NCBI GenBank assembly: GCA_965552055.1
Contig: CBEVQO010000002.1
Location: 224,001-288,000 of the forward strand
Length of the DNA: 64,000 nucleotides
Origin: an uncultured bacterium
GTDB lineage: Bacteria > Hydrothermota > UBA3073 > NMUJ01 > CBEVQO01
Direction of reading: 5' to 3'
Translations under genes and position numbers: made by a program
The notes under the pieces: generated by a model
Seen by the model: only the letters and a program-made list of their open reading frames with translations
What the model was told of the DNA's origin: nothing
Database searches by the model: none
Shown here: piece by piece, positions 2,544 through 63,713 of the stretch
Layout: the number at the start of each line of letters is the position of its first letter
Numbering within the stretch: the first letter of the stretch is position 1

Positions 2544-2570
2544 TTGACATTCCTGTAAAAGATATATCAA
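2544..2570 (+). promoter_or_regulatory. Putative promoter TTGACA-N15-TATCAA for hutU
   Basis: Perfect -35, weak -10, SD GGAGG downstream. Confidence 0.5.
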
Positions 2571-2588
2571 TTAATGAAGGAGGGGATT

Positions 2589-4256
2589 ATGGCTATTGAA
2601 GTTAAAGAAAAGCCCATAATAAGGGCGCCAAGGGGGACGAATCTTTCGTGCAAAAACTGGCAGATTGAAGCAGCTATGCGAATGCTCATGAATAACCTTG
2701 ACCCTGATGTTGCTGAACTTCCGGAAGAATTAATTGTTTATGGTGGTGCAGGGAAAGCTGCACGCAACTGGGAATGCTTCTGGGCTATCGTAGATTCACT
2801 TAAAAAACTGGAACCAGATGAAACTTTGCTTATACAATCGGGTAAACCTGTTGGTATCTTCAAAACATTTGAGCATGCTCCCCGTGTGTTAATCGCAAAT
2901 TCTCTACTGGTTCCCGCATGGGCAAACTGGGATTATTTCAGAAAACTTGAAGCAATGGGATTGATAATGTATGGTCAGATGACAGCAGGTAGCTGGATTT
3001 ATATCGGTACACAGGGGATAATTCAGGGCACCTACGAAACTTTTGCTGCATGTGCAAGGAAGCATTTTGGTGGAAGTTTAAAAGGAAAATTTGTACTTAC
3101 TGCAGGGATGGGAGGAATGTCAGGAGCACAACCACTTGCAGTAACGATGAACGAAGGCGTAATACTGGATGTAGAAGTTGACCCAAAAAGAATTGAAAGA
3201 AGGGTAAAACAGGGCTTTTGCGATGTAATGGTTTATGACCTTGATGAAGCTCTTAAACTCGTTGACGAGGCACTTAAAAAGAAAGAGCCAAAATCAATCG
3301 GACTTGTGGGGAATGCTTCCGAAATACATCCAGAACTTGTGAAAAGAGGAATAATACCTGATGTCGTAACAGACCAGACATCAGCTCATGATGAATTAAA
3401 TGGATATGTCCCCGGAGGTATTTCACTTGAAGAAGCAATAGAATTGCGCCATAAAAATCCAAAAGAATATATTAAGAGGGCTTATGAATCTATGGCACGA
3501 CATATGGAAGCAATTCTTGAGATGCAAAAACAGGGTGCAGTTGCTTTTGATTATGGTAACAATTTGCGTGGTCAGGCATATAAAGCAGGTGTAAAAGATG
3601 CGTTTAAAGTACCGGGATTTGTTCTTGAATACATTAGACCCATGTTTTGTGAAGGAAGAGGTCCATTCCGCTGGGTTGCACTATCTGGCGAAAAAGAAGA
3701 TATTTATAAAACAGATGAAGAAGTTTTAAAATTATTCCCCGAAGATGAAACTTTAAGGCGCTGGATTAATCTTGCGCGCGAAAAGGTACCCTTCCAGGGG
3801 TTGCCTGCTCGTATTTGCTGGCTCGGATATGGCGAGCGCGCAGAGTTTGGATTGAGAATAAATCATCTTGTGAGAAAAGGAGAATTAAAAGCACCAATTG
3901 TAATAGGAAGAGACCACCTTGATACTGGTTCTGTTGCATCACCGAATAGAGAAACCGAAGGCATGAAAGATGGTAGTGATGCTATAGCTGACTGGCCAAT
4001 TTTGAATGCCCTCTTAAACACGGCATCAGGTGCAACATGGGTATCTGTGCATCATGGTGGAGGCGTTGGAATAGGATACTCCATCCATGCTGGTCAGGTA
4101 ATAGTTGCAGATGGCACAGATGAGATGGACAAAAGATTAGAAAGAGTTTTAACAAATGACCCGGGAATTGGAATAGCAAGACATGCAGATGCGGGATATG
4201 AAAAAGCGATCGAAGTAGCAAAAGAAAAAGGCATAAAAATACCGATGATGAAATAA
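2589..4256 (+). CDS. hutU: Urocanate hydratase
   Basis: [43 protein letters not shown] motifs; start placed at ATG after GGAGGGG. Confidence 0.97.
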
Positions 4257-4265
4257 GGAGGGAAA

Positions 4266-4538
4266 ATGAATTTAATCACATTCTTGCAGGTACTTGGACT
4301 TGTAGGTGTATTCGCATCGATTCTGGGAGCATGGCTCAGCTGGTCTGCAAAATATAACGGCAAACTAACAAGGGAATTGATAAAAGAAGAAAACAAGCAA
4401 ACAAGGGAATTGATAAAAGAGGAAAATAGGCAAACAAGAGAATTGATTGAAAGAGTCACAGAAAAAATAGCCGCTCTCATAGTAAGCGAAGGTGAAAAGA
4501 CAAGAGAATTGATAAAAAAGATGATGGAAAATGAATAA
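4266..4538 (+). CDS. Small membrane-anchored coiled-coil protein with 11-aa repeats
   Basis: SD AGGAGG; N-terminal hydrophobic helix; TRELIKEENKQ repeats. Confidence 0.75.
   Translation: MNLITFLQVLGLVGVFASILGAWLSWSAKYNGKLTRELIKEENKQTRELIKEENRQTRELIERVTEKIAALIVSEGEKTRELIKKMMENE
4368..4466 (+). repeat. 33-bp coding tandem repeat (ACAAGRGAATTGAT...) at 4368, 4401, 4434, with a further copy at 4500
   Basis: Seen directly. Confidence 0.85.
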
Positions 4539-4848
4539 AATCAGGAAAAAATTAAAAAAGTTAGGCAAGAAAGTTGGTCTTAAATATTTCAATAAAAATA
4601 TGGGGAAAGAAGCAATTTTAAGATACGAGAACTCCTTCTTCCTGAAACCTTATATCGCATTTAAAACACCCACAAAAGAAAACAAATCTATAATGTGCTT
4701 TGCTGATACATTAAGAAATATAATAGCTTCGGGGAAAATTTATCACACTCCAAAAGGCGATATCGGACCAGAAGAAGCTCTTATTGCATTCCTTAAATGG
4801 GAAATAGAAAGACTACCTCGACCGGGTGCCATAAAAAGAATAAAATAA
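4531..4848 (+). CDS. Hypothetical basic protein
   Basis: 105-aa ORF overlapping the upstream stop. Confidence 0.55.
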   Translation: MNKIRKKLKKLGKKVGLKYFNKNMGKEAILRYENSFFLKPYIAFKTPTKENKSIMCFADTLRNIIASGKIYHTPKGDIGPEEALIAFLKWEIERLPRPGAIKRIK

Positions 4849-4976
4849 TGCCGGTAAGAGTATTTATAAAAATCAAATTCAAAGATAAGGAGATTGACTC
4901 ACCCGCGCTGGTGAACACAGGCTACGAGACAGAATCTCCCGAATTAATGATACCAAAAACACTTGCTAAAAGGTAA
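4848..4976 (+). pseudogene. Truncated archaeal-type clan AA aspartic-protease-like fragment (42 aa)
   Basis: MPVRVFIKIKFKDKEIDSPALVNTGYETESPELMIPKTLAKR*; ALVNTG motif; TAATG coupling to upstream gene. Confidence 0.5.
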
Positions 4977-5024
4977 GAAGCAGTGTTAATCCGAAATATT
5001 GGACATAAAATTAAATTTTTTGAC

Positions 5025-5051
5025 TTGACTTTATTGTAAAAAGAGTATAAT
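5025..5051 (+). promoter_or_regulatory. Promoter TTGACT-N15-TATAAT
   Basis: Near-consensus hexamers upstream of SD AAGGAGG and GTG 5073. Confidence 0.75.
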
Positions 5052-5072
5052 TGTGGAAAATAAGGAGGGGGT

Positions 5073-7004: not shown

Positions 7005-7012
7005 GGGGTAAA

Positions 7013-10844: not shown

Positions 10845-10957
10845 TACCCCTGCCTTTGTTTATGTTTCGGATTCTTACAAATTACATACAATTTACCCCG
10901 TCTCTTCACTATCTTACAACTTGCGCATAATTTTTTTATAGAAGACCTTACCTTCAT
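10844..10957 (-). CDS. rpmJ: 50S ribosomal protein L36 (below ORF-track cutoff)
   Basis: Hand translation [37 protein letters not shown]. Confidence 0.97.
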
Positions 10958-22358: not shown

Positions 22359-23996
22359 ATGAATGACTTTGACAGGGAAATAGAAATCTCCAAAAATATA
22401 TTTCAGAATATTTTGACAAATTGGAAGAAAGATTCCCGGGTGGTAATTTACTTTCCAGAGATAAAGAAAAAAGTTCCGCAAAATTACTGGCTGGGTGTAG
22501 GTGCACTTAACTGGACTGGCATGGCAGAAGGAGTAACAGGTTTGCTAACGGAATATGGACTTGATATAGCTTCGATACACGGAACCATACAAAAGATTGG
22601 CAGAACACCCATTGGTTTGCTTTCACTCGCAATAAACATCAAATCAAAGAAAGACCTCGAAAAATTAGAAGATAAACTCCCGGAAATAAAAGAGAAAATA
22701 ACAAAGATATCGAGAAGGACTACAAAAAAGAGTGAACTTCTGGCACATGAAACAAGAAAAATAGAAAGATTTGATGATGTTATGGAAATTTTCGAAAAGA
22801 AATATAAAAGGGTACCTTCTGGCTTGATTACTGAAGCCGTCAAATTCTTTATAGCGCGTACAGAGGCGTATCTTACAGAGAGAAAACCAGAAGACCTCGC
22901 AAAGATAATATCGATGAATTACAGATTGATAAACAGGGTAAACAGAAGTGGCGGGGAACCGCAGGTCGATGCACATCATCTTGAAACTGTAAAGGAAAAA
23001 CTAACAGGAGTAACTGTTGCTGGCTTCGATAAAGATATCACTCTGGCAGATGTCCTTGAAGGAATCGCAGATGCAATACCTGACTATGTAATCAAATACA
23101 ACAAAGAATTTACAACACCCGACGGAATACTTGTATGCAGGATAGAGCTCGATGGATTCCTGCCTCTCAAAAAATTGAAGACATCGATAAAAAGGAGACT
23201 TAAAATAAGGGAAATCGAGAGAATCAGATATTGTGAGCTATTCGGTGGAATCGAGCATTTAGCACGCGCAATCTTACCTGTATTAATAAGAGATTACGAC
23301 CAATCAAAAATAACCCAGGTATCGATAAATCCCTGTGCAATATCTCCCAAAGAAATAACATTAAAAATCCTCATAGTAGGTAAGGACTATGACCCGAAAC
23401 TTTGTGTAGCATCTCTCAGCAGGATAAAGGGCTTCGTTGTAAGGGGATATGAAACACCCCAAACTTTAAAGAGAACGGTTTGCTTCATAGACCTTGTAGT
23501 AAACGCAAAACAATTTCCAAATCCAGAGCGAATACACACCGAAATAAAAAAGGCACTCAAAAATGTTATCGGAGAATTCAGAGATTTCGATGAAGGAATG
23601 AGAACAGAAGATACAAAGCGATTCGAAAATCTAAAACAAAATTTACCAACTATACCAAGAGACCTTCTAAAAAAGATATACTATGGACTCGAAGATTTTT
23701 ATAGATTAACTTTTGATGAAGAGGAAATAAGAGAAATAGTCAGGATTGGACTTTCTCTTTTGCCAAAAGAAAAAGGAATGGAAATCGTAAGATTAAATGG
23801 TGCTACACTCGTTGGCATTGCACAAAACGAAGATATCTTTAATTTGCTTATCCATAAGCTGAAAAATTATGAAAACATTGTAAATCACATAATATTTGGA
23901 AGAAAGCACATTTATTTAGTGAGAATCTCAAAGAATAATCAATCTGTCCCCGAAGAAGAGATAAAATCTTTCTTGACTTTTCTGGAAAATGCATAA
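22359..23996 (+). CDS. Hypothetical protein, possibly with ACT-like domains
   Basis: 545-aa ORF; WTGMAEGVTGLLTEYGLDIASIHG resembles an ACT repeat. Confidence 0.6.
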   Translation: MNDFDREIEISKNIFQNILTNWKKDSRVVIYFPEIKKKVPQNYWLGVGALNWTGMAEGVTGLLTEYGLDIASIHGTIQKIGRTPIGLLSLAINIKSKKDLEKLEDKLPEIKEKITKISRRTTKKSELLAHETRKIERFDDVMEIFEKKYKRVPSGLITEAVKFFIARTEAYLTERKPEDLAKIISMNYRLINRVNRSGGEPQVDAHHLETVKEKLTGVTVAGFDKDITLADVLEGIADAIPDYVIKYNKEFTTPDGILVCRIELDGFLPLKKLKTSIKRRLKIREIERIRYCELFGGIEHLARAILPVLIRDYDQSKITQVSINPCAISPKEITLKILIVGKDYDPKLCVASLSRIKGFVVRGYETPQTLKRTVCFIDLVVNAKQFPNPERIHTEIKKALKNVIGEFRDFDEGMRTEDTKRFENLKQNLPTIPRDLLKKIYYGLEDFYRLTFDEEEIREIVRIGLSLLPKEKGMEIVRLNGATLVGIAQNEDIFNLLIHKLKNYENIVNHIIFGRKHIYLVRISKNNQSVPEEEIKSFLTFLENA

Positions 23997-23999
23997 TAT
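23973..23999 (+). promoter_or_regulatory. Internal promoter TTGACT-N15-TAATAT for the lpt-rpoN operon
   Basis: -10 overlaps the upstream TAA; GTG 24005 lies 5 nt later. Confidence 0.65.
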
Positions 24000-24004
24000 T
24001 AAAT

Positions 24005-30801: not shown

Positions 30802-30828
30802 ATTTTATACATTTTACTCATTTGTCAA
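30802..30828 (-). promoter_or_regulatory. Promoter TTGACA-N15-TAAAAT
   Basis: Internal to the por operon, 1 nt after the MNT stop. Confidence 0.75.
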
Positions 30829-33885: not shown

Positions 33886-33912
33886 ATTATAATCCCATTT
33901 TCAGTTTGTCAA
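33886..33912 (-). promoter_or_regulatory. Promoter TTGACA-N15-TATAAT, leaderless por operon
   Basis: Both hexamers perfect; ATG 7 nt after the -10, no SD. Confidence 0.85.
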
Positions 33913-34406: not shown

Positions 34407-34434
34407 TTGACAAATTTCGTATTTAAGTTATATT
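34407..34434 (+). promoter_or_regulatory. Promoter TTGACA-N16-TATATT for the R-M operon
   Basis: Only 16-bp spacer instance found; no SD before ATG. Confidence 0.65.
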
Positions 34435-45434: not shown

Positions 45435-45439
45435 CTCTT

Positions 45440-45466
45440 ATTTTAACAAAAAGTTTATATTGTCAA
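45440..45466 (-). promoter_or_regulatory. Promoter TTGACA-N15-TAAAAT, probably leaderless
   Basis: -35 contains the upstream TGA stop; ATG 5 nt after the -10. Confidence 0.75.
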
Positions 45467-46014: not shown

Positions 46015-46020
46015 TTCTTA

Positions 46021-46047
46021 AATTTATTTCAAATATGCATTTGACAA
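46021..46047 (-). promoter_or_regulatory. Promoter TTGTCA-N15-TAAATT, probably leaderless
   Basis: ATG 46014 lies 6 nt after the -10; no SD. Confidence 0.55.
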
Positions 46048-46058
46048 GAAAAAAATTC

Positions 46059-46085
46059 TTGACAATCGGATATAAAGTTTAAAAT
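46059..46085 (+). promoter_or_regulatory. Promoter TTGACA-N15-TAAAAT
   Basis: Upstream of SD AAGGAGG. Confidence 0.75.
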
Positions 46086-46103
46086 AATATAAAAGGAGGG
46101 GGT

Positions 46104-48785: not shown

Positions 48786-48794
48786 GGAGGGGGC

Positions 48795-52345: not shown

Positions 52346-53058
52346 GGCAATTTAATAGCATTTTGTTTTTTCACCTTTCTGCAAAATTCCCTTTTACTTT
52401 TCCAGTTATAATATTTAGCCGAAGTATAAGCCCCATAAAGTTCTCCGAGATATAAAGAAAAAGATAATGCTCCAAAGAAATAAAGTTTAAAATTGTCTTT
52501 AGTTTTATAACCCAGATATGCGAATGAAGAAAAAATACAAAGCATACCCAATGATGCTACTCCATCCCAAATTCTACCTGCATAAACCCTGCCTGCTCCC
52601 GGTAATAAAGCCGATAAAAATAGAGCACACAGGGGAAAACGATGAGAAGGTTTACCACGAAAAGATAAAAATTTGCGTGCTTCCCTGTATCTCCCAGCAT
52701 ACAAATAAATAAGCCCCATTAATTTCTCATCCTTCCAGTATTTTAACGCAGAATCCCATTGCCCTTCAAAAAAATATAACTTGCCAAGTTTTAACCTATA
52801 CTTCTCATCTTTTTTATTAATCCTTTTTAACTCATTTAACGCTTTTTGAAATTGACGGGTTTTCAAATATAACTCAAATACAACATAATGTAAACTATCT
52901 TTCAAATTTTTGTCTTCAGTTAAATAAATTGCTCTTAAATATTCGCATATTGCATTTTTATAATCTTTTTGTTCTTCAAGATATTTTGCAAATTTTAAAA
53001 TTTTAGGAATTGAAGTAAATAAATCACTCTCTATAAAAATCACAAATAACAGGCACAT
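52342..53058 (-). CDS. TPR-containing membrane protein
   Basis: TPR units; LSALLPGAGRVYAG plus TM helices. Confidence 0.7.
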   Translation of the reverse strand: MCLLFVIFIESDLFTSIPKILKFAKYLEEQKDYKNAICEYLRAIYLTEDKNLKDSLHYVVFELYLKTRQFQKALNELKRINKKDEKYRLKLGKLYFFEGQWDSALKYWKDEKLMGLIYLYAGRYREARKFLSFRGKPSHRFPLCALFLSALLPGAGRVYAGRIWDGVASLGMLCIFSSFAYLGYKTKDNFKLYFFGALSFSLYLGELYGAYTSAKYYNWKSKREFCRKVKKQNAIKLP

Positions 53059-53386
53059 TTTTAAAACTCTTTAAAGTGTGGCGTTCCGGAGGGTCCCACA
53101 ATTTCCATCCCCTCTTTTTATCATAAGCCCAGCCATAATCTCTTGCGTAAATGCGAGCAAATGGATTGCATCTTATAAAGCGGTCAAAAGCCATAAAAAA
53201 GCCCCAAAATTTATAGCGCTTTATAGATTGATAAGCATAATGAGAACATGAAGGAATAAAATTACAAACATCACCAAAAATGCCCGAAAAAGTGCGTTGA
53301 TAAACTTTTATGCAAAAAGTGGTAAAAGATATGGGTAGTGCTTGCGGTGGTAAAGTATCGGTTAATATCACAAAAAGTATTACCAT
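53024..53386 (-). CDS. yidD: Membrane protein insertion efficiency factor YidD-like
   Basis: YQRTFS, CNFIPSCSHYA, DRFIRCNP. Confidence 0.85.
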   Translation of the reverse strand: MVILFVILTDTLPPQALPISFTTFCIKVYQRTFSGIFGDVCNFIPSCSHYAYQSIKRYKFWGFFMAFDRFIRCNPFARIYARDYGWAYDKKRGWKLWDPPERHTLKSFKNVPVICDFYRE

Positions 53387-53982
53387 TGCTCTTCTTTTAT
53401 TTTCACATCCTCTGGCAATTCTATTTCAAAAATAGATGCGCTATCTACAACTTCTCTTACATTCATAAAAAACATTTTGTAACTATATTTTTGAGGATAA
53501 AAAACTTCTATTAAAATTTTTGAAGGGAAAAAATCCGTTGTTAATTTTTTGAAATCAAAAATTTTTACCCTTGCAATCGGTTTATTCTTAAATTCCTGAT
53601 AAACTTCGGTTATATGCTTTTTCCACTTTTTTATCAAAATGGCATTTCCTTTGTTATCATTGTAATAACAAAAGATGGTATCTTTTTTTGTTTTCTTCAT
53701 TATTAGGTTAAAACCTAGCTTTTGCAATATTTCAAATTCATTCTTAAACAAAAAGTTTTTTGTCGGATCAAAAGTTTTTGTTGTGAATCTGAAAGCGAGT
53801 TTGCGTTCGGGATAATAAACCAGAGTAGTATTTGCGTTCACGGTTATTATTTGATTTAAAGGATAAGAAACTTCATATTTTATTTTTCTCTTTTCTTTAT
53901 CAAAATATAACTTCCCTTTTACCGTATCTTTTTCAATTTGTATGAAATCAGCTTTTATTAACAATATCAAATAAACTATCAC
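53380..53982 (-). CDS. LolA-like periplasmic protein
   Basis: ADFIQ..VKGKLYF..KYEVSYPLNQII..VYYPE..FEIELPEDVKI; start placed at GTG 53982. Confidence 0.55.
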   Translation of the reverse strand: MIVYLILLIKADFIQIEKDTVKGKLYFDKEKRKIKYEVSYPLNQIITVNANTTLVYYPERKLAFRFTTKTFDPTKNFLFKNEFEILQKLGFNLIMKKTKKDTIFCYYNDNKGNAILIKKWKKHITEVYQEFKNKPIARVKIFDFKKLTTDFFPSKILIEVFYPQKYSYKMFFMNVREVVDSASIFEIELPEDVKIKEEQW

Positions 53983-53984
53983 AT

Positions 53985-54410
53985 TTAATAGGCATAAGTA
54001 GTTGCAGATGCAGCGATGTAATAAATGTAACAGCAATAAAATGCAGCATATGCGATACCGCTCACTATACAACCTATAGTCGCCATACGGACCTGTTTAT
54101 CGCGACCTGCTTTCTTATAAGCAGCTGTATACAACTGAATCCATTCCGGGTCTTTGCCTATCAGTGTCGTTGCCGATGGAGTAGGCTCTATTAGATACGC
54201 AGCAAGAATCCCCCATATTCCGAGGAAAAATCCAGCTGCAAACCATAGCGTGCCATTTACCTCGGCTTCTGCATCCGTTTTACCCTGAGTGTAAGCATCT
54301 GTAACTTCGCCAGCATATTCTTCGCCATAATACTCTTCGTGATACTTGTATTCCTGAGCATACGCCGTCCCCACACTTATTGCGATGACAAAAGGCAATA
54401 TCTTCAACAT
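53985..54410 (-). CDS. Hypothetical exported/membrane protein
   Basis: Signal peptide AYA, SD AGGAGG, two hydrophobic segments. Confidence 0.75.
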   Translation of the reverse strand: MLKILPFVIAISVGTAYAQEYKYHEEYYGEEYAGEVTDAYTQGKTDAEAEVNGTLWFAAGFFLGIWGILAAYLIEPTPSATTLIGKDPEWIQLYTAAYKKAGRDKQVRMATIGCIVSGIAYAAFYCCYIYYIAASATTYAY

Positions 54411-54428
54411 AACTCACCTCCTTTCGCT

Positions 54429-54455
54429 ATTTTAAACATTTTATATGGTTGTCAA
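54429..54455 (-). promoter_or_regulatory. Promoter TTGACA-N15-TAAAAT
   Basis: Upstream of SD of the 54410 gene. Confidence 0.75.
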
Positions 54456-54469
54456 TAAAAATTTTAATG

Positions 54470-56122
54470 TTATTTTATCCCTAATAATTGTTTTGCGTGT
54501 TCGATAGCAGAAGGTGTTATCTTTTTACCCGATAATAACATTGCTATTTCTTCAACTCTTTCTTCATAAGATAAAGGTTTGGCAAAAGTAAAAGTTCTTC
54601 CTTCTTTCTCTTCTTTCCATACTTTTATATGATGGTCTGCTTTTGATGCAATCTGGGGTAGATGTGTAATGCATATTACCTGATGATGTTGTGATATTAC
54701 TTTTAACTTTTCACCAATAGTATCTGCTATTTTACCACTTGTTCCAATGTCTATTTCATCAAATATCAAAATGGGTATTTCATCGAGTTCCGCGAAGACG
54801 GACTTAAGAGCCAGCATGCATCTTGACAGTTCGCCACCTGATGCAATTCTACGCAAATGCAAGGGCTTTTCCCCTGGATTCGCAGAAAACAAAAATTCTA
54901 CTTTATCTATACCATAATGAAAAGGGGGACGAGTTTCAATCTTTATTTTAAAACAGGCTTTAGGCATACCAAGGAGTTTTAACTCCGATTCTACCTTTTT
55001 CTCAAGATTTCTCGCACCCTTTTTACGCTCATGTGAAACCTTATTACTCAATGCGTAATACTCTGATTCTAATTCCCTTATCTCATTCTCAAGATTTTTG
55101 ATACCTTCTTCGCTTTCTTCGAATGATGCCAATATTTTTTTTAATCTTTCACCGTATTCGAGAATTTCCTTTACAGATTTTCCAAATCTATCTTTCAATT
55201 CCTGAATTTGCATTTTTCTTTTTCTCAATTCTTCCAATTTTTGTGGGTCATATTCGAATTTATCACGGAAATCTGCGATAGATTTTGCGATTTCACTTGC
55301 ATTTATCAAAATATCTTCTATTTGCTTCGCATAATCTTCAAACTCTTTCACATTATTGGATAATTCTTTCAAATTGAAAAGCACCTTTTTAAGCATATCG
55401 ATAACGGCATCTTCCCGTTCATATAGCAAATTTATTGCTTCATCAATTAAAATTTTATTTTTCTCATAGTTTTCAAGCAAGTTCAATTCCTTTTCTATTT
55501 CTTCATCTTCTCCTTCATATAAATTCGCATTTTCTATCATCTCCAGCTGGAATTCATAAAATTCTTTTTGCTTTTTAAATTCTTCAAATTCTTTTTTCAT
55601 CTTTTCGAGCTTTTCTTTTTTATCGTTTATTTCGAGCCATAGTTTTTTTAATCTTTCTCTTTCTTTTTGTAATTTACAGAAAGCATCCAGTATTTCTAAT
55701 TGCTTTTCTGGTTTCAGCAAAGATTGATGCTCATGCTGTCCGTGCATATCTATTAATTCATCGCCTATCTCTTTTAAGAATTTGAGAGATACAGGCTCGT
55801 TATTAACCCAGCATCTTGATTTACCCTGTAAAGAAATAACCCTTTTTACATAAATTGTGTTATCTTCCACATCTATTCCTTTTTCCTTTAAATAATTTTT
55901 TAATTTTTGAGAAATCTCAAATGTTCCTTCAATTACCGCTTCCTTTTCACCTGTTCTAACAGAAGACCTATCCCCTGCCTCCCCTATTAATGCGTTTATA
56001 GCATCAACGATTATCGTTTTGCCGGCTCCTGTCTCGCCTGTCAAAATATTTAAACCTTTTTTAAAATTTAGATATAGCTCACCTATTAATGTAAAATTCC
56101 TGACATGTAAATCTAATATCAT
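54470..56122 (-). CDS. recN: DNA repair protein RecN
   Basis: LTGETGAGKT, HGQHEHQSL, ASGGELSR, FDEID, ITHLPQIA. Confidence 0.97.
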   Translation of the reverse strand: MILDLHVRNFTLIGELYLNFKKGLNILTGETGAGKTIIVDAINALIGEAGDRSSVRTGEKEAVIEGTFEISQKLKNYLKEKGIDVEDNTIYVKRVISLQGKSRCWVNNEPVSLKFLKEIGDELIDMHGQHEHQSLLKPEKQLEILDAFCKLQKERERLKKLWLEINDKKEKLEKMKKEFEEFKKQKEFYEFQLEMIENANLYEGEDEEIEKELNLLENYEKNKILIDEAINLLYEREDAVIDMLKKVLFNLKELSNNVKEFEDYAKQIEDILINASEIAKSIADFRDKFEYDPQKLEELRKRKMQIQELKDRFGKSVKEILEYGERLKKILASFEESEEGIKNLENEIRELESEYYALSNKVSHERKKGARNLEKKVESELKLLGMPKACFKIKIETRPPFHYGIDKVEFLFSANPGEKPLHLRRIASGGELSRCMLALKSVFAELDEIPILIFDEIDIGTSGKIADTIGEKLKVISQHHQVICITHLPQIASKADHHIKVWKEEKEGRTFTFAKPLSYEERVEEIAMLLSGKKITPSAIEHAKQLLGIK

Positions 56123-56823
56123 TCTTCCCAGAAGAGGATTCTACCGCATTGCTGGCAAATTATTAATTTTTCTCCTTTCCTTACTTCGTTGATAATCTGA
56201 GGGGGTACTACGGCGTGGCATCCTGAGCAATATCCTTTATTTACATTGGCAATGCCTATGCCATTTCTAATAGCCCTTATTCTTTCATAGCGATTTAAAA
56301 CCTTTTTATCAATTTTTGATGATAATTTTTGCCTCTCCTCTTTCTTGCTTTTCAACTTATCTTCAATTTCTTTTAATTTGCGATTTAATTCTTCTTTTTT
56401 CTTTTCAAAAGCCTTTTTTGCCTCCTCGAGTTCTTTTTCAGCATTTTTGATCTCTTTGCTCAAATTATCCATATTTTCCATCAGTTTTAATCTCTCTTCT
56501 TCCATCAATGAAATTCTTTCCTCTTCATGTTTTATTTCATTAGTTATGGAAATGTATTCTTCATTTGTTTTGACCTGCAGTAATTGTCTTTTATATTTTT
56601 TAATTTTATCCTGCACCTCTGCAATATCGATATCCAAACGGGCGTCTCTCTTTTTTACTTTCTCAAGTTCTTCCTTTTTCTCGGATAATTTTTTCTCTTT
56701 CTCTGCTATTATTTTTTTTGCATTCTCTATCTCTTTTGGTATTCTTTCCTTTTCTTTCTCTATTTCCTGAATTTTATTATCTAATTTTTGTAAATTCCAT
56801 AAATTTTTAAGCTGCTCCTTCAT
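56119..56823 (-). CDS. Coiled-coil protein with C4 zinc ribbon (DUF164/CT398-like)
   Basis: LQKLD, long coiled coil, CSGCH...CQQCGRIL. Confidence 0.9.
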   Translation of the reverse strand: MKEQLKNLWNLQKLDNKIQEIEKEKERIPKEIENAKKIIAEKEKKLSEKKEELEKVKKRDARLDIDIAEVQDKIKKYKRQLLQVKTNEEYISITNEIKHEEERISLMEEERLKLMENMDNLSKEIKNAEKELEEAKKAFEKKKEELNRKLKEIEDKLKSKKEERQKLSSKIDKKVLNRYERIRAIRNGIGIANVNKGYCSGCHAVVPPQIINEVRKGEKLIICQQCGRILFWEE

Positions 56824-56825
56824 TT

Positions 56826-56901
56826 TGGTGGGCAGGGCCCGATTCGAACGGACGACCTTCTGGATGTGAACCAGACGCTCTAACCACTGAGCTACCTGCC
56901 C
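56826..56901 (-). tRNA. tRNA-Val(CAC), CCA encoded
   Basis: GGGCAGG/CCTGCCC acceptor stem, TCTGG-TTCACAT-CCAGA anticodon arm, TTCGAAT T-loop. Confidence 0.97.
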
Positions 56902-56910
56902 TCACTCTCT

Positions 56911-56937
56911 ATTATAACAATTATCATAATTTGTCAA
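56911..56937 (-). promoter_or_regulatory. Promoter TTGACA-N15-TATAAT for the tRNA-Val operon
   Basis: Both hexamers perfect; 9 nt before the tRNA 5' end. Confidence 0.88.
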
Positions 56938-56951
56938 GTGAAAATTTCAAA

Positions 56952-56978
56952 TTGACAAAATTAAAATCTCATTATTTA
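56952..56978 (+). promoter_or_regulatory. Promoter TTGACA-N15-TATTTA, probably leaderless
   Basis: GTG 56984 lies 5 nt after the -10; no SD. Confidence 0.6.
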
Positions 56979-56983
56979 TTTGT

Positions 56984-57505
56984 GTGAATGTTTTAATCAC
57001 GGGAAAACCGGGTGTCGGAAAGACGACCCTTATCCTGAGAGTTTTAACAAAATTGAAACGAAAAGCATCTGGTTTTTACACACAGGAAATCAGGGAATTC
57101 GGAAGAAGAACGGGCTTTGAATTAATCACACTAAAAGGAGACAGCGAAATACTGGCAGATGTGAATCTTGACTCCCCATATAAGGTGGGCAAGTATAAAG
57201 TTAATCTGAAAGCAATGGAACTGGCATGTAAAGCAATAGAAGAAGGCTTAAAAGAAGGAAATCTAATAGTAATAGACGAAATTGGCAAAATGGAACTTTT
57301 TTCTTTTCGCTTTCAGGATTTAGTACTCGAAGCACTTGACTCAGATTGCGATGTTTTGGGAACGATAATGTTAAGACCTCATCACTTTACAGACCAGATA
57401 AAAAGAAGAAAAGATGTAAAACTTTACATTTTGACACAGGGAAATTTCAAAGAAATTTTCGAAAAAATACTTTCCGATTTTTCGATAAAAAATGGGCAAA
57501 TGTAA
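56984..57505 (+). CDS. THEP1-type NTPase
   Basis: ITGKPGVGKTT, GFYTQEIRE, VIDEIGKMEL. Confidence 0.93.
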   Translation: MNVLITGKPGVGKTTLILRVLTKLKRKASGFYTQEIREFGRRTGFELITLKGDSEILADVNLDSPYKVGKYKVNLKAMELACKAIEEGLKEGNLIVIDEIGKMELFSFRFQDLVLEALDSDCDVLGTIMLRPHHFTDQIKRRKDVKLYILTQGNFKEIFEKILSDFSIKNGQM

Positions 57506-58517
57506 AAACTGTGGAAAAGAGTCCCCTGAAATATCAGATGTTATAGGTTTTTGTGCTGACTGTATAAGAAAAGGCGAAGCAGATTTATCTTTGCTTCATA
57601 AAAAATCAAGGGAAATCTTTGGATTACCTCCTTTTCCTCCCAAATCAGAAAATGGTATTAAATGTGGGATGTGTGTTAATGAATGCATATTGAATGAGGG
57701 CGAAACAGGGTATTGTGGCATCCGCAAAAATATAAATGGCAAAATCGTTACAATTGCAAATGGTCATCTTGACTATTACTTTGACCCGCTACCGACAAAT
57801 TGCGTAGCTGAATGGGTTTGCCCGGGCAGATTCGCTTATGGATACAAGAATCTCGCGGTATTTTACAGAGCTTGTACCTTCAATTGTTTATTCTGCCAGA
57901 ACTGGCATTTTAAACAGGGGAGCATTAGAGAAGTGCCACCCGATGTGCTTGCAGAAGAAGTTGATGATAGAACATTTTGCATCTGCTATTTCGGAGGTGA
58001 CCCCACTCCTCAACTACCGCACGCAATAAAAACATCCAGACTCGCATTGCAAAAAAGAAAAATAAGAATTTGCTTCGAAACAAATGGAACTATGAATAGA
58101 AATTTACTCGAAGAAGCAGCGGAAATAGTTTTTGAATCAGGTGGATGCATCAAATTTGATTTAAAAGCATACACAAAAAATCTAAATGTGGCACTTTGTG
58201 GTATCACAAATGAAAGAACTTTTGAAAATTTTGAATATCTTGTAAAATATTTTAAGAAGAGAAAAGAGCCTCCTTTCCTTGTAGCAAGCACCTTACTGGT
58301 ACCGGGATATGTTGACCTTTATGAAGTGGAACAGATTGCGAAATTTCTATATAAACTTGACCCTGATATTCCTTATTCTTTACTCGCTTTTTATCCTTCT
58401 TTTATTTTAAATGACTTACCCACAACAAGCAGGGAACATGCCTTTGCTGCAAGAGATATTGCCCTGAAAATAGGTTTAAAAAGGGTAAATATCGGAAATA
58501 TACATCTGCTAAGGTGA
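57492..58517 (+). CDS. Radical SAM protein, PFL-activating-enzyme-like with N-terminal Cys motifs
   Basis: CTFNCLFCQNW, YFGGDP, ETNG, STLLVPGY. Confidence 0.9.
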   Translation: MGKCKNCGKESPEISDVIGFCADCIRKGEADLSLLHKKSREIFGLPPFPPKSENGIKCGMCVNECILNEGETGYCGIRKNINGKIVTIANGHLDYYFDPLPTNCVAEWVCPGRFAYGYKNLAVFYRACTFNCLFCQNWHFKQGSIREVPPDVLAEEVDDRTFCICYFGGDPTPQLPHAIKTSRLALQKRKIRICFETNGTMNRNLLEEAAEIVFESGGCIKFDLKAYTKNLNVALCGITNERTFENFEYLVKYFKKRKEPPFLVASTLLVPGYVDLYEVEQIAKFLYKLDPDIPYSLLAFYPSFILNDLPTTSREHAFAARDIALKIGLKRVNIGNIHLLR

Positions 58518-58523
58518 TAATCT

Positions 58524-59078
58524 TCATCTCCATTCTCCCACTATTTCTGTATATTTATCTCCCCGTGTTAGAGATTTTGTTATAGTAATTTTTAAATCTT
58601 TGCAGCCTGATATTTCCAGTGCTCTCTCAATCCATCCTGCAATCCTGTATTCAACAACAATTTGCGGCTTGCCAAATTCTGTTATATGTAAAACAGCTCT
58701 ATTTTTACCCCTCTCCACTACTTCCATTTTTGATGGTCTGTAATAATTGGAGAAAATGGCGCTCGCTCTGTCAATTATAAACCCTGGTGAACCTATTTTT
58801 ACAAAAACTTTATAGATTCCTCTGAGGGCAAAATCAGCACTGAATCTGCCAGCTTCCCAAGCACCCCTTAGGTCTCCATTGTAAAAAAGTTCGCAAATCT
58901 TTAGTGTTGGAATAATGAAAGCTTCTTCTAAGGGATACCATATTGCAGCTAGTATTGGCTTTGTCATTATCTCTCGAGATTTCGGTGGCAAAGAATTCAA
59001 CCATTCTTCATACCTTTCGCCAAATTTTTCTTTAACAAAAAGAGGTATGCTCTCTACAGCTGTGCCTTTCACTTCCAT
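58524..59078 (-). CDS. Hypothetical protein (DUF2378/V4R-like ligand-binding fold)
   Basis: VKGT, WYP, GRFSA, IAGWIERALE. Confidence 0.6.
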   Translation of the reverse strand: MEVKGTAVESIPLFVKEKFGERYEEWLNSLPPKSREIMTKPILAAIWYPLEEAFIIPTLKICELFYNGDLRGAWEAGRFSADFALRGIYKVFVKIGSPGFIIDRASAIFSNYYRPSKMEVVERGKNRAVLHITEFGKPQIVVEYRIAGWIERALEISGCKDLKITITKSLTRGDKYTEIVGEWR

Positions 59079-59079
59079 T

Positions 59080-60576
59080 TTATCCCCCTATCAATTTCGA
59101 TATTCTTTCTTCTATTTTTTTACTCAGTTCTTCTGTGATACTTTTAACTGCTTTTTGTAATGCTGTTTTACTGGCTTCTTCTTCCGATGCACCAAATCCT
59201 TTTACATTTACCTTCTTGATATCAAAAAGTATCTCCCCTGATTTCACATAGACCGCCCTTATCGAAACATCTGCACGAGAATGTGGCATACCGGTAACCT
59301 TCTCGCCAGTAGGCAGCTCAACTACATCTCCAAGATACTCAGACCTCGCAATACCAACGATAATGATATCCGCATCTGTCTTATCCTTTATCTCCTGTAA
59401 CATAGCCCTATCACCGTAAAACGCACCTTTAACCATCGAAGGATTTATAACATTAACAATCTCAGGAGCAGTTATAACATTGAATTTGTTTTTCAACATC
59501 TCCTCTGTTAAACATTGTTCAACCACAGATGGCACCTGTAATTTCCCGTTGATTTCTTCATAAACCCTTACAAGTATTTTCAACAAACGCCTGGGGGATA
59601 TTGCTTCGCACATAAATCTCACAAATAAACCTTTTAAGCCATCAAGATGCGAAGTTATATCGGTTATCGCTGTATCACCCATAATTTCTCTTTTCATAAT
59701 TTTTGTATCAAAACTTGCATTTATTATTCCTTTTCCTTCACTTTTTATCTCATAAACTTTACATTCTGCTACACCGTTTTTATCCGTTCGCGAAAGTGTA
59801 TCATATTTTGCATCAACGCCCTCTATTTTAAATCTAACAGGTATATTTACAAGTGGTTTATTTTCTCTTTCTATTTTTACTTTCAAAGGAAAATTTAATC
59901 CCTTTCCGCACAGAGTTTTTTGATTGTCACCTCCTTCTTTTTTAATCGTAATATTTGCGAATGCACGCTCAATTTCTATATCAACATCAGAAAGAGATAT
60001 TTTTTTCTCTTCAAAGAAAAATGGTCTGCCCGAAATTATCCTTGCATCTTCCTCAAATCCCATAGCCATCAAAATCTTATTCCTTGCTTTCAAAAGCAAA
60101 GATAAACCTTTTGTGAAAAAACCTTCATTAAGCAATTTTTTACCTTCATCGTATAATTTCTCTGCCTCATCATAATAAATGCTTGCCTTTTCAAAAAGGA
60201 GTTTACTGCTAAGCATACGATTAAGCACAGCAACGGCATACACTACCTTCTGCTTTTTGCTAACACCTACTTTCGCAAGTTTAACGCCTTCAAGCACATT
60301 TGAAACAAGGACTTTTGTCAACATTTCATAGTCCGAACTTATTTTTTTGCCTTTCTGTTGCAGTTTATCGATAAATTCGGCTTTTATCTTAACTCTTATC
60401 TGCTCGCCTATATTTGCGTATGCTTTGTTTTTCGCTATATCTTTGCATTTTTCTACATCACCATAAAGAGGTGCAACACCCACCCCAACGATATAACGGG
60501 TCTCCGGATACTTCTTCTTGATTTTGGTAATCTCTTTCTCATAACCTGCTATCAAACAGAGTATAAGCATAAACAT
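59080..60576 (-). CDS. LPP20-like domain exported protein with Ig-like and C-terminal alpha/beta domains
   Basis: YIVGVG..AKNKAYANIGEQI; GGDNQ..RTDKNGVA; ADIIIVG. Confidence 0.6.
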   Translation of the reverse strand: MFMLILCLIAGYEKEITKIKKKYPETRYIVGVGVAPLYGDVEKCKDIAKNKAYANIGEQIRVKIKAEFIDKLQQKGKKISSDYEMLTKVLVSNVLEGVKLAKVGVSKKQKVVYAVAVLNRMLSSKLLFEKASIYYDEAEKLYDEGKKLLNEGFFTKGLSLLLKARNKILMAMGFEEDARIISGRPFFFEEKKISLSDVDIEIERAFANITIKKEGGDNQKTLCGKGLNFPLKVKIERENKPLVNIPVRFKIEGVDAKYDTLSRTDKNGVAECKVYEIKSEGKGIINASFDTKIMKREIMGDTAITDITSHLDGLKGLFVRFMCEAISPRRLLKILVRVYEEINGKLQVPSVVEQCLTEEMLKNKFNVITAPEIVNVINPSMVKGAFYGDRAMLQEIKDKTDADIIIVGIARSEYLGDVVELPTGEKVTGMPHSRADVSIRAVYVKSGEILFDIKKVNVKGFGASEEEASKTALQKAVKSITEELSKKIEERISKLIGG

Positions 60577-61381
60577 CTTTTCCTCCTTTTATTTTCATAA
60601 AATTCTTATAAGATTCTCTAACTCTATCTGCTGGTCTTATCTCAAAAATATAATAAGGGTCATGAGTTTCCATTATCTTCAAATATTTTCGAAAATTAAC
60701 ATTGCCTTTGCCAACAACATTGTGCTCATCATAATCACCTTTATTGTCATGCAAATGTACTTCTATCACTCTATCCAGGTGCTTTTCAAAAAATTTCTCC
60801 TCTCTTTCTCTTTCCTTATTTTTCCTCAAATTTGTATGTCCCCAATCCCATGTTAATTTTGCTGGTTTAAACTCATTCAATATCTTCTCCACAATCTCTT
60901 TACCCAAATCCGTTTTCACTGCCCCTGCATTCTCAATTGAAAGATATGGAGATTTATCTTTCGCATAAACAAAAACCTCGCATAGAGCATCGTAAACAAT
61001 ATTTTTAAACTCATCGGGAAAAAAATCATGTAATTTTTGAATCTTACCAAGATATGATATTGTGCAGGAATCCCCTATATGCATCGTTATTACTTTAATT
61101 TTTAATTCATCTGCAAAATCTATTATCTCTTTCATAATTTCAATACTTGCATTTACATAATGTTTTTCAAAAAAGAAGAAAGAAAGGGTATTCGGTGCGT
61201 GAAGCAAAATATCAATATCGCTATTTTTTATTGCGTTGTAATTTTCTTTTTTTATCCTATCTGGATAAAAATTTGGGTCTGTTAAATTAATTTCGATACA
61301 ATTAAATCCTTCTCTCTTTGCATTTGCGATTATATCTTCCAATCCGGCATCTTCGAACATTATCTGAAATCCTATTTTCAT
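60539..61381 (-). CDS. Sugar phosphate isomerase/epimerase TIM-barrel (AP endonuclease 2 family)
   Basis: LHAP, IEN, DWGH, VHLHDN...DEH. Confidence 0.85.
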   Translation of the reverse strand: MKIGFQIMFEDAGLEDIIANAKREGFNCIEINLTDPNFYPDRIKKENYNAIKNSDIDILLHAPNTLSFFFFEKHYVNASIEIMKEIIDFADELKIKVITMHIGDSCTISYLGKIQKLHDFFPDEFKNIVYDALCEVFVYAKDKSPYLSIENAGAVKTDLGKEIVEKILNEFKPAKLTWDWGHTNLRKNKEREREEKFFEKHLDRVIEVHLHDNKGDYDEHNVVGKGNVNFRKYLKIMETHDPYYIFEIRPADRVRESYKNFMKIKGGKDVYAYTLFDSRL

Positions 61382-62817
61382 TTTTCATTCCCAAGATAAA
61401 CTTTTTTCCAGTATTCTTCTGTCATCTTACCTATTATTTCACCATATTCTATCAATCCTTTTCTGTATTCTTCATCCTGCAATGCATCTTCTGCTTCCTT
61501 ATAAATTCCTCTTGCCCCTGTTTTCTTTATTATTTCGTAAATTTTCGCATAATGGTCTCTTATTATACACTGCCTTAACAAATTTCCTGCTTTATCCGGT
61601 GGCTTTGCATAGTAATATTCATCCTGCCATTTTCTTATTTCTTTAAAAAATGGAGTATTTATAGCGTCATCAAGATTTCCTCCTTTTTTATAAAGTTCTT
61701 TGAGATTTGTAACAGAATATGGTATGAACACACATGGCATTACATCAGCATCCCAGTTTATGTGGAAATATCCGCAAGCCCTTGCACCTGATATGCATCC
61801 GTCACTCGCAGTACCTGAATTCCAGAAATCAGCAATAAAATAACGCTTCTCCCTTACTAAACGCCATATATGATTGAATAACTTTAAGCGCTGCTCGGGC
61901 GTCGGCAACATGGATAAAGTATATTCCCTTCCTATCGGCATATAGTGGAAAACCCAGGCGTATATTGCTCCCTGTTCTTCAAAATAGAAATCCCAGAAAT
62001 CATCACGCAAAAGTATATCGGCATTTTCCCTGTAAGCAGTATAAGAAATACCAAAAGGCACTCCTTCTTCCCTCATATATTCCATCGCCGACATTATCTT
62101 TTCAAATACTCCTTTGCCCCTTCTTTCATCTGTTTCTTTCTTAAATCCCTCCACTGAAACTGCTGGCGTTATATTTCCGAGTTCTGACAATCTTTTTGCC
62201 ATTTTCTTATCAATAAGCGTCGCATTAGTATACATCAGGAAGTAACAATCGGAATGTTTCTCTGCAATATCAAGAAATGTTTTACCCTGACTGCGATACA
62301 AAAGGGGTTCGCCTCCTGAAATAACAAAGAAATTGGAGCCCCACAAATCTTTCGCTTCCTGAATTATTCTGTCAAAAATATCAAATTCAAGATGATTTGC
62401 TCTCTTCTCGGATGCCGCCGCATAACAGCCCTTACAGTGAAGATTACATGCCCATGTAGGACTTATCGTGATAAACATTGGGGGACGCCTTCCATATTTC
62501 TCCATGTATAATCTCCTTTTATAGAATCCCCCGAAAAATACATTTCCAAGAAACACTTTAAATAGTCCTTCGGCTGATTTGCGTGATAAATGCCCTCTTT
62601 TAAATGCCCTGTTAATGCTGTGTAAAAGTGCCCTACCCATATAGTATTTATCCATCTGCACCCTTTTGGGACGATTATCAGGGTTGCCTATTATCAAATC
62701 TTTGTATATCTTCCATTCCATCAATTTCAATATATTTTCTCTTGCGTAATTATTGGAAAGTGCAATGGCTCCTGCTTTTATGATAAAGTCAGCAGTTAAT
62801 TTTTGCGTCCTTCTCAT
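61378..62817 (-). CDS. Radical SAM protein with SPASM/twitch-like C-terminus
   Basis: CNLHCKGCYA, SGGEP, GCISG, MPCVF. Confidence 0.9.
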   Translation of the reverse strand: MRRTQKLTADFIIKAGAIALSNNYARENILKLMEWKIYKDLIIGNPDNRPKRVQMDKYYMGRALLHSINRAFKRGHLSRKSAEGLFKVFLGNVFFGGFYKRRLYMEKYGRRPPMFITISPTWACNLHCKGCYAAASEKRANHLEFDIFDRIIQEAKDLWGSNFFVISGGEPLLYRSQGKTFLDIAEKHSDCYFLMYTNATLIDKKMAKRLSELGNITPAVSVEGFKKETDERRGKGVFEKIMSAMEYMREEGVPFGISYTAYRENADILLRDDFWDFYFEEQGAIYAWVFHYMPIGREYTLSMLPTPEQRLKLFNHIWRLVREKRYFIADFWNSGTASDGCISGARACGYFHINWDADVMPCVFIPYSVTNLKELYKKGGNLDDAINTPFFKEIRKWQDEYYYAKPPDKAGNLLRQCIIRDHYAKIYEIIKKTGARGIYKEAEDALQDEEYRKGLIEYGEIIGKMTEEYWKKVYLGNEK

Positions 62818-62835
62818 AATTCCCTCCTTTGTTTT

Positions 62836-62862
62836 AAGATAATGAATTTACAGAAAAGTCAA
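62836..62862 (-). promoter_or_regulatory. Promoter TTGACT-N15-TATCTT
   Basis: Upstream of SD AGGAGG of the radical SAM gene. Confidence 0.65.
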
Positions 62863-62880
62863 GCAAAAATTTGTTTATTT

Positions 62881-63041
62881 TTAGCCCCTCCTCCGCTGTC
62901 CCCGCCTTCCCGATTAAGTCAGCCCACTACTACAGCTAAAAATACGCAAATAGCAAATAAAGCCACAAACCCTGCCACAACCTTAAACCCGTAATGGGCT
63001 GACATATCAACCCATATGTAACAGGCTCGCTTTCGCTCGCA
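62881..63041 (-). repeat. Structured intergenic element, short copy
   Basis: Same ends as 33932-34398; inverted repeat 62918-62930/62991-63003. Confidence 0.75.
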
Positions 63042-63066
63042 TTAAAAATTTAATAAAAAATTAAAA

Positions 63067-63588
63067 TTATTTTAATAAGTTCAAAATCGCAGTAATTAAA
63101 GTGCCAACTATCCCTGATATTGCACCTATCAATAGCCACATTAATTTGTCAATCCTCCTGTTAGTTTCATCTATCCTCCTGTTAGTTTCGTCAACCCTCC
63201 TGTTAGTTTCCGCTGTCCTTTCATCAATCCTCTTATTAGTTTCATCTATCCTCTTATTAATTTCTGCTGTCCTTTCGTCTATTCTCTTATTAGTTTCATC
63301 TATTCTCTTGTTAGTTTCATCTATTCTCTTATTAGTTTCAACAATCTTTCTGTTAGTTTCTGCTGTCCTTTCATCTATTCTCTTATTTATGTCATTTATC
63401 GCTTTCTGGAACTCTTCTTTAGTCACGAATTTATCTAGTTTCTCTTCTATTCTTATCACCCTACCTGCTGTGCTCAGCTCAAATTTCTTGAACATGTCTT
63501 CTTCTACCAATGCCTCGGTAAGAATTTCTTTCACTACTTTCCTCGCCGCTTCTTCTAACCTCTCTTTCTTAATTTTTACTTCAGACAT
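63067..63588 (-). CDS. Tail-anchored coiled-coil repeat protein (DUF1640/MempromCC-like)
   Basis: FVTKEEF neck motif, RIDETNK heptads and RIDERTAETNR hendecads, C-terminal TM, SD AGGAGG. Confidence 0.8.
   Translation of the reverse strand: MSEVKIKKERLEEAARKVVKEILTEALVEEDMFKKFELSTAGRVIRIEEKLDKFVTKEEFQKAINDINKRIDERTAETNRKIVETNKRIDETNKRIDETNKRIDERTAEINKRIDETNKRIDERTAETNRRVDETNRRIDETNRRIDKLMWLLIGAISGIVGTLITAILNLLK
63147..63385 (-). repeat. 21-bp/33-bp coding tandem repeats
   Basis: Plus-strand TTAGTTTCATCTATYCTC(T/C)T units seen directly. Confidence 0.85.
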
Positions 63589-63605
63589 CTTTCCCTCCTT
63601 AATGA

Positions 63606-63632
63606 ATATTAATCACAATTCTGATTTGTCAA
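63606..63632 (-). promoter_or_regulatory. Promoter TTGACA-N15-TAATAT
   Basis: Upstream of SD of the 63588 gene. Confidence 0.7.
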
Positions 63633-63639
63633 ATAATTT

Positions 63640-63675
63640 TGTAATAAGCTCGGCTACACTTCGCATTAAAAATTT
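63640..63675 (-). repeat. Degenerate third copy of the element's hairpin end
   Basis: TGTAATAAGCTCGGCTACACTTCGCATTAAAAATTT versus TGTAACAGGCTCGCTTTCGCTCGCATTAAAAATTT. Confidence 0.6.
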
Positions 63676-63686
63676 TTATTTTATAC

Positions 63687-63713
63687 TTGACGAAAAAATA
63701 ATTTCATTAAAAT
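63687..63713 (+). promoter_or_regulatory. Promoter TTGACG-N15-TAAAAT for acpP-fabF
   Basis: Upstream of SD AAGGAGG. Confidence 0.7.

Follow-up and report, generated by a model that had tools for sequence, protein, structure and literature searches.

Consensus-like -35 and -10 boxes set 15 bp apart across the genome of an uncultured bacterium, and candidate determinants of the spacing

Introduction

Why should sigma70-type -35 and -10 boxes lie 15 bp apart, rather than 17, at site after site along a bacterial contig? The question is raised by a 64,000-nt stretch of contig CBEVQO010000002.1 (positions 224,001 to 288,000; hereafter the window) from an uncultured bacterium. An initial annotation of the window had listed 17 promoter-like sites with a 15-bp spacer and one with 16 bp, and had ascribed them either to a changed sigma geometry or to an obligatory remodelling factor. 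All 17 sites were found to carry their boxes where the annotation had placed them, with spacers of exactly 15 bp.

Promoter finders assume a spacer of 17 bp, a length that passes for a near-constant of bacterial transcription. According to the available part of one study, this length predominates in 49 species with mapped transcription start sites (TSSs) (PMC12641261). The ProFinder preprint, in its available text, gives a median of 17 in each of 49 genomes, with 99.2% within 16-18; its scan of 56,742 genomes, from which it concludes that the canonical spacer holds domain-wide, allowed 16-18 bp only (10.64898/2026.09.23.753901). From the available part of another paper, sigma70 promoters with 15-bp spacers still function in E. 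coli (PMC9303308), so that the orthogonal promoter code proposed in the annotation is conjectural. The literature searched, which did not take in most subscription papers, contained no description of a housekeeping optimum at 15 bp, and the terms "promoter" and "sigma" do not occur in the available text of the WOR-3 isolate paper (PMC12285271).

Results

The 15-bp spacer prevails throughout the genome

The genome bearing the window, here called G000, comprises 2.23 Mb in 15 contigs and is 97% complete; datasets with matching sequence are mostly hydrothermal-vent metagenomes. The genome-wide spacer histogram peaks at 15 bp, not at 17. Counts at spacers of 15, 16 and 17 bp (given in this order, separated by slashes, throughout) were 121/27/7 for TTGACA..TATAAT, 253/47/17 for TTGACA..TAWAAT and 416/93/106 for TTGACA..TAnnnT. 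N17 matches are largely N15 sites read a second time: of 60 gene-proximal sites with a 17-bp spacer, 47 have their -35 in common with a 15-bp site. Among the 2012 genes returned by a simple in-house gene caller, 688 are operon-first; TTGACW-N15-TAnnnT lies within 110 nt of 276 of them (40%; shuffles, 2.2), while the N16 form is found at 42 and the N17 form at 55. When 405 operon leaders were anchored on TTGACW and the -10 was left unconstrained, T (90%), A (85%) and T (74%) appeared at the positions that correspond to a 15-bp spacer. A shifted -7 T (TAnnnnT) is weakly indicated (44/72 vs 150/345), and the 364 remaining leaders yielded no further promoter motif. Two tandem TTGACA-N15 sites stand upstream of the 16S gene. 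TTGACW occurs within 50 nt of 26 of the 47 tRNA/tmRNA genes, and these 26 leaders have TA at N15 in 22 cases and TAnnnT at N15 in 17, at N16 in none and at N17 in three.

Start codons bear on the register of the boxes. At 253 strict sites, an ATG lies 5 nt past the -10 in 73 cases and 6 nt past it in 37, opening open reading frames (ORFs) of at least 80 aa in 59 and 30 of them, respectively. A real -10 two bases further downstream, the case against itself that the annotation had named, is contradicted by these leaderless starts: since a transcript cannot begin inside a start codon and only 3-4 nt would remain, such a placement was ruled out by the ATG peak at gaps of 5-6 nt. The TSS is centred 7 bp past the -10 across 49 species in the available part of the mapping study (PMC12641261), and the N15 register departs from that normal position by at most one base. 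Leaderless genes seem to be very common in G000, an ATG following the -10 by 5-6 nt at 110 of the 253 strict promoters. The extended -10 has its TG shifted upstream by one base (TGnn 82 vs TGn 25), and G reaches 50% three bases ahead of the -10.

Genes behind longer spacers are compositionally less typical. The median hexamer-composition percentile of downstream genes is 0.54 for 15-bp sites (n=290), 0.33 for 16-bp sites (n=42; p = 0.0008 against the 15-bp genes) and 0.23 for 17-bp sites (n=11; p = 0.017), on a typicality score that also takes in start-codon and Shine-Dalgarno (SD) terms. This fits acquired DNA and lends some support to the earlier idea that the one exception in the window belongs to accessory genes. 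The exception (TTGACA-N16-TATATT; 34407..34434, plus strand) does have a 16-bp spacer, and genes for an N6/N4 DNA methylase and a MjaI-type restriction nuclease lie downstream.

The spacers are AT-rich and contain runs, as would be expected if homopolymer collapse, a repeat family or a regulator operator mimicking the boxes had produced the pattern. Spacers without any run longer than 3 bases, however, still give 96/15/4. Contigs assembled from four sequencing runs over window positions 45000-63999 differ at 11 indel places, none within spacers; pieces from three of the runs, one of which is possibly the source sample, span the sites at 56937 and 56952 gap-free. A homopolymer artefact was rejected on the run-free spacers and these independent contigs. 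The sites are moreover oriented and lie ahead of leaderless starts and of rRNA and tRNA genes; their spacers vary in sequence, and the 15-bp mode recurs in another family. An origin of the sites as artefacts or non-promoters is therefore highly improbable. The 15-bp observation is confirmed, and the N15 sites, judged from sequence, are almost certainly promoters. N15 boxes occur ahead of 40% of operon starts, at the two rRNA promoters and in most of the tRNA leaders that bear a -35, and are likely to be the housekeeping promoters.

The 15-bp mode is confined to one order

Relatives from the same phylum carry other G numbers; G001, G070 and G105 form a sister family in the same order as G000. 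Across the 262 genomes of the phylum with a completeness of 70% or more, TTGACA-N15-TAWWWT occurs 348 times in G000 and 62 and 48 times in two sister-family genomes of 1.4 and 1.2 Mb. None of the other 259 is comparable, the maximum being 34 sites in a 3.3-Mb genome. The sister family peaks at 15 in partial sequence (G001, 40/23/17 in 499 kb; G070, 21/7/3 in 234 kb), with a different -10, TAWWTT as against TAWAAT in G000. The 15-bp trait is confined to this one order of the phylum. The 40 relatives scored, at spacers of 15, 16 and 17 bp only, mostly peak at 16 or 17 where sampled, and many are mixed 16/17. Family f4 is nearly pure 17 (G055, 3/5/265), G017 of family f17 is nearly pure 16 (5/224/17), and sites are few in family f3, where no mode stands out (16/9/4, 12/12/4, 7/15/8). 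A separate TAWWTT class with a spacer of its own was considered and rejected, the TAWWTT mode tracking the TAWAAT mode in 4 of 5 genomes (G050 is split, 41/42). One narrow pattern used to look for phage contigs with clustered 15-bp promoters gave 5 isolated matches.

RpoD of G000 is altered where sigma contacts the spacer

The RpoD of G000 is a dnaG-linked protein of 575 aa (contig C7, 57373-59100; locus L001, 499-2226) with the makeup of a group 1 sigma factor: regions 1.1 and 1.2, a non-conserved region (NCR), regions 2-4 and a position after dnaG. Its closest homologue shows about 35% identity over its length, its scores lie under the NCBIfam cut-offs (284.8 vs 354 bits for TIGR02393; 369.7 vs 555 for PRK05658), and a search of GTDB genomes returned 4 distant loci only. 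The RpoD/RpoB distance of G000 to its class relatives is about 1.4-1.9, vs 0.5-1.05 among the others.

The conserved melting aromatics in region 2.3 and the -35 recognition helix are kept. Departures from conserved columns number 14 of 82 in G000, vs 0-7 in 34 relatives (G011 and G018 were excluded from these counts and included in trees); they amount to 5/13 in regions 2.4-3.0, 2/5 in region 3.2, 1/22 in sigma4 and 2/19 in regions 2.1-2.2. The sigma3.0 helix falls short by one residue of its length in every scorable sequence, 87 of 87 homologues (32 of 120 gave no score for it) and 30 of 30 relatives. The position of E458 (this residue and H455, N383, R385 and Y425 below follow the E. coli numbering) is occupied by N, vs E in 86 of 88, and the sigma3.2-4 linker has 44 residues, vs 42 in 99 of 102. 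The one-residue deletion falls in predicted helix 413-430 of an AlphaFold2 model (mean predicted local distance difference test score, pLDDT, 83.9; predicted template modelling score, pTM, 0.54); residues 462-489 are unresolved in this model, which is therefore silent on domain angles. Residues 1-116 hold two tandem region 1.1-like domains (37% identity over 51 aa, E 4e-10) which the model folds alike; the second of them is an insertion unique among 35 aligned RpoDs. Substitutions and three unique indels cluster where sigma contacts the spacer.

The alignment of RpoD regions 3-4 with relatives, which the initial annotation had advised, turned up a unique helix deletion and a linker insertion; the companion suggestion of an indel in the RpoB flap tip was not borne out. 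Of the two causes it had put forward, a changed sigma geometry gains from the clustering of RpoD changes in regions 2.4-3.2, and the remodelling factor gains no support: with no flap-tip indel, and no CarD found in the five genomes searched, there is no sign of an obligatory factor of this kind. A stand-alone CarD was not detected in G000, G001, G070, G017 or G065, where PF02559 matches only Mfd-sized frames of 839-1010 aa.

The next most changed 2.4-3.0 regions (80% threshold) are those of G010, G017 and G003, a single clade with a 16-bp mode. TGnn:TGn is 88:20 in G017, which has E458D, and 8:188 in the 17-bp genome G065.

The sister family offers a short sigma factor but no detectable RpoD

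A second RpoD-like sigma, of 272 aa, is encoded in G000 at 66580-67398 of contig C5, between degP and an M23 peptidase gene. Its homologues contain Pfam regions r1.2, r2, r3 and r4 only, without region 1.1, and RpoD-like sigmas of 270-320 aa are present in most of 41 genomes; in the G010/G017/G003 clade the short sigma is weak or not found. Among the 120 homologues listed, two are labelled WOR-3, including the best named one, and one Bacteroidetes; going by the two WOR-3 labels, G000 and its relatives probably belong to that phylum. In the three sister-family genomes (G001, G070 and G105; 99, 87 and 66% complete), no RpoD was found via TIGR02393, PF04542, PF04545 or protein searches of these draft assemblies. 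Their dnaG is flanked by a nadB-like gene and another gene on intact contigs in both of the genomes where dnaG was found, and the sigmas seen are the short degP-linked one and one of extracytoplasmic function (ECF) size only. If RpoD is truly gone there, the short sigma must read the 15-bp promoters of that family. The short sigma, the sole RpoD-like sigma found in the sister family, is a candidate absent from the initial annotation.

Discussion

What sets the spacing

Taken on sequence comparison, a sigma factor, rather than the core enzyme or topology, probably sets the ruler. The chances are about even that in G000 this ruler is RpoD remodelled in regions 2.4-3.2. The remodelled protein would hold its -35- and -10-reading domains 2 bp closer; its changes would alter the DNA path past sigma3, with the TG one base further upstream (TGnn), as well as the docking angle of sigma4, and the altered path and docking would together need no activator to absorb 2 bp and about 69 degrees. 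The same spacing would suit the short second sigma of the order, which in the sister family would have taken the place of RpoD. The available part of a review states that spacer length is dictated largely by the sigma4.2-sigma2.3 spacing and notes a rotation of sigma4 (PMC4496709).

Several points weigh against a remodelled RpoD. It cannot explain the whole order, because the sister family shares the 15-bp mode and no RpoD was found there, and the comparison comprises about two independent events. The flap normally positions sigma4, and the sigma3.2-4 linker of G000 is lengthened, not shortened. RpoD of the 17-bp family f12 has 3 changes in regions 2.4-3.0 too, and the E458D genomes G003 and G010 have no excess of TGnn (TGnn:TGn 15:15 and 8:16). 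Fast evolution of RpoD also fits release from duty.

This last point leads to the alternative that the short sigma became the housekeeping factor in the ancestor of the order, bringing an intrinsic 15-bp preference. RpoD would have been freed from its duty, to drift in G000 and disappear from the sister family, in parallel with sigmaABfr of Bacteroidota. RpoD was found in none of the three sister-family genomes, and those with counts peak at 15; within the order the short sigma has evolved relatively slowly (1.17 vs 0.97 for RpoB) and RpoD fast; and the short sigma of G000 keeps TRERVRQ, WW and H455 and is without the C-terminal helix. Family f15 (G011 and G018) similarly combines a fast RpoD with a slow short sigma, at a 16-bp mode (in G011 the TTGACA-N16-TAWWTT class dominates, with 72 sites vs 22 at 17), and is a possible second takeover. 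The short sigma, however, is spread over the phylum and conserved in G002 and other 17-bp genomes too. The idea that it governs a 15-bp regulon across the phylum was rejected, the 40 N15 sites in G008, G023, G007, G014, G021 and G002 preceding unrelated genes or none. The TAWAAT -10 of G000 is unlike the TAWWTT of the sister family; the short sigma of G000 has N383H, R385K and Y425V, while RpoD keeps N383, R385 and Y425; and sigma4 of RpoD is nearly intact, unlike that of a decaying gene; the protein looks remodelled, not decayed. Codon adaptation, used to rank the two sigmas, was uninformative, its results shifting with the reference set. Such a takeover, then, is possible but on the unlikely side. 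Somewhat more tentative still is the broader scenario in which the phylum has repeatedly reset its sigma70 ruler (17, 16, 15) around fixed boxes and, in this order, RpoD was displaced by a short paralogous sigma. This would be a second replacement of a primary sigma, comparable to the one in Bacteroidota and still under way, and would give a thermophilic holoenzyme that reads consensus promoters orthogonally by spacing alone.

A ruler built into the core polymerase, or into an unrecognised factor bound to it, would impose 15 bp on any sigma, for example through small changes in the beta-prime zipper or at the root of the flap arm, and a single event would then explain the mode in two families with different sigma sets. 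The order shares conservative changes, E>D at RpoC 33 in the zipper and K>R at RpoB 822 in the flap arm, and G000 alone has R>K at a spacer-contacting zipper arginine (RpoC 38); the zipper touches the spacer backbone, as the available parts of two papers describe (PMC10216364, PMC4496709). Nevertheless, the RpoB flap tip, the beta-prime zipper and the zinc domain align without indels, the changes are conservative, the flap K>R is also present in 16-bp G010, and departures from conserved columns (RpoB 15/283, RpoC 18/377) are within the range of relatives. The only CarD/TRCF-domain match in the five genomes searched is the long Mfd-sized ORF. An origin in the core is thus unlikely. DNA topology is a less probable cause again. 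Reverse gyrase, which would keep the chromosome relaxed or overwound and so favour short spacers, is present in G000, G001 and G070 and was absent from the 18 other members of the class that were searched, and relaxation does favour short spacers in the available part of a published study (PMC9303308). As a sufficient cause, though, it was ruled out by G006 and G020, which have reverse gyrase and peak at 17 (2/1/20 and 0/2/28); the enzyme also occurs in 16-bp G010 and is missing from 16-bp G017, and G000 has gyrase as well. For 15 bp to match the twist of 17 bp, about 13% overtwist is needed, far beyond physiological supercoiling. Topology may contribute to the short spacer and does not suffice for it.

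In the sister family, rpoC is not next after rpoB; the two genes lie on different contigs, and in G001 another gene follows rpoB (contigs C18 and C31).

Comparison with known systems

The promoters of G000 resemble canonical sigma70/sigmaA promoters of E. coli and B. subtilis in the TTGACA -35, the TAWAAT (more generally TAnnnT) -10, the upstream AT-rich tract, a probable start 5-7 nt past the -10, for which leaderless ATGs at 5-6 nt serve as a proxy, and, going by the position of the sites, their use at rRNA, tRNA and housekeeping operons. They differ in the spacer, 15 bp instead of a mode of 17 (17+/-1), and in having TGnn instead of TGn. MerR-type remodelling acts on 19-bp promoters, whose consensus boxes likewise stand at a suboptimal distance, with an activator on a palindrome in the spacer. 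There the spacer is long and few promoters are regulated; in G000 it is short, the spacing is genome-wide and no activator was identified. For the group 3 factors sigma32 and sigma28, the spacing equivalent to that of the hexamers is about 15-16 bp. As alternative sigmas, they have boxes of their own and small regulons, in contrast to the sigma70 boxes and whole housekeeping set of G000; their sigma4 docks on the flap tip in differing orientations, according to the available text of two papers (PMC10216364, PMC12784957). In the available part of its description, sigmaABfr of Bacteroidota is a short housekeeping sigma without region 1.1 and with a promoter grammar of its own, reading TTTG/TANNTTTG at -33/-7 (PMC6847099). 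The sister family resembles it in architecture, a short sigma being the only RpoD-like one found there; both families of the order keep TTGACA/TAnnnT, and only the distance differs. Nor is the sole-primary-sigma trait of sigmaABfr shared by G000, which has RpoD; in the three draft sister-family genomes RpoD was not found.

A main sigma remodelled to measure a shorter distance would, if true, break a supposed constant of bacterial transcription. With a free-living lineage at 15 bp genome-wide and relatives at 16 and 17 reading identical boxes, it becomes testable which parts of sigma and core set the ruler, and a short list of candidate ruler residues is now in hand. The lineage may also be a source of spacing-orthogonal sigma/promoter pairs. 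Promoter prediction and metagenomic expression screens can overlook whole lineages.

Promoter-like sites of the window

The individual sites bear out further details of the initial annotation. Its two perfect TTGACA-N15-TATAAT sites are present, one (33886..33912, minus strand) ahead of a POR-family oxidoreductase subunit gene whose ATG lies 7 nt past the -10, the other (56911..56937, minus strand) ending 9 nt from tRNA-Val and spanned gap-free by contigs of three runs. TAAAAT is, as it had stated, the most frequent -10, at 6 of the 17 sites. In 14 of the 17, the -10 matches TAnnnT; the other three begin with TA and have no -7 T. These are TTGACA-N15-TATCAA upstream of a urocanase gene (2544..2570, plus strand) and two copies of TTGACA-N15-TATTTA, upstream of the ribosomal protein L4 gene (21008..21034, minus strand) and of an NTPase gene with GTG 5 nt past the -10 (56952..56978, plus strand). 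The -35 has one mismatch at TTTACA-N15-TAAAAT (22285..22311, minus strand), upstream of an aminotransferase gene, and at TTGTCA-N15-TAAATT (46021..46047, minus strand), where the ATG of a class II aldolase gene follows by 6 nt.

Each of these two sites stands back-to-back with another: the former with TTGACA-N15-TATTAT (22327..22353, plus strand), followed after 5 nt by the ATG of a 545-aa ORF that is likely leaderless, the latter with TTGACA-N15-TAAAAT (46059..46085, plus strand), upstream of an 893-aa CARDB/secretion-tail protein gene. TTGACA-N15-TAAAAT also occurs at 30802..30828 (minus strand), with a 136-aa ORF and its SD leader downstream, at 45440..45466 (minus strand), 5 nt from the ATG of a DUF5618 gene, and at 54429..54455 (minus strand), ahead of a 141-aa ORF, where an independent contig spans the site gap-free. 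TTGACT opens three sites: TTGACT-N15-TATAAT upstream of an EF-G-family gene (5025..5051, plus strand), TTGACT-N15-TAATAT with a GTG start 5 nt past the -10 (23973..23999, plus strand) and TTGACT-N15-TATCTT upstream of a radical SAM gene (62836..62862, minus strand). The remaining two are TTGACA-N15-TAATAT upstream of a 173-aa ORF (63606..63632, minus strand) and TTGACG-N15-TAAAAT with an SD downstream (63687..63713, plus strand). A strict scan of the window for TTGACN..TAnnnT at 14-18 bp added few further sites, mostly intragenic.

Divergent promoters are found back-to-back at 22285-22353, 46021-46085 and 56911-56978, their -35 boxes 11-15 bp apart; at pairs with such close boxes, two polymerases would be forced into competition. 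At 20326-22267, the ribosomal cluster starts at L4 with its own promoter, and an aminotransferase gene, not rpsJ-rplC, lies upstream. The 893-aa protein encoded at 46104-48785 combines CARDB with a C-terminal sorting domain like that of type IX secretion.

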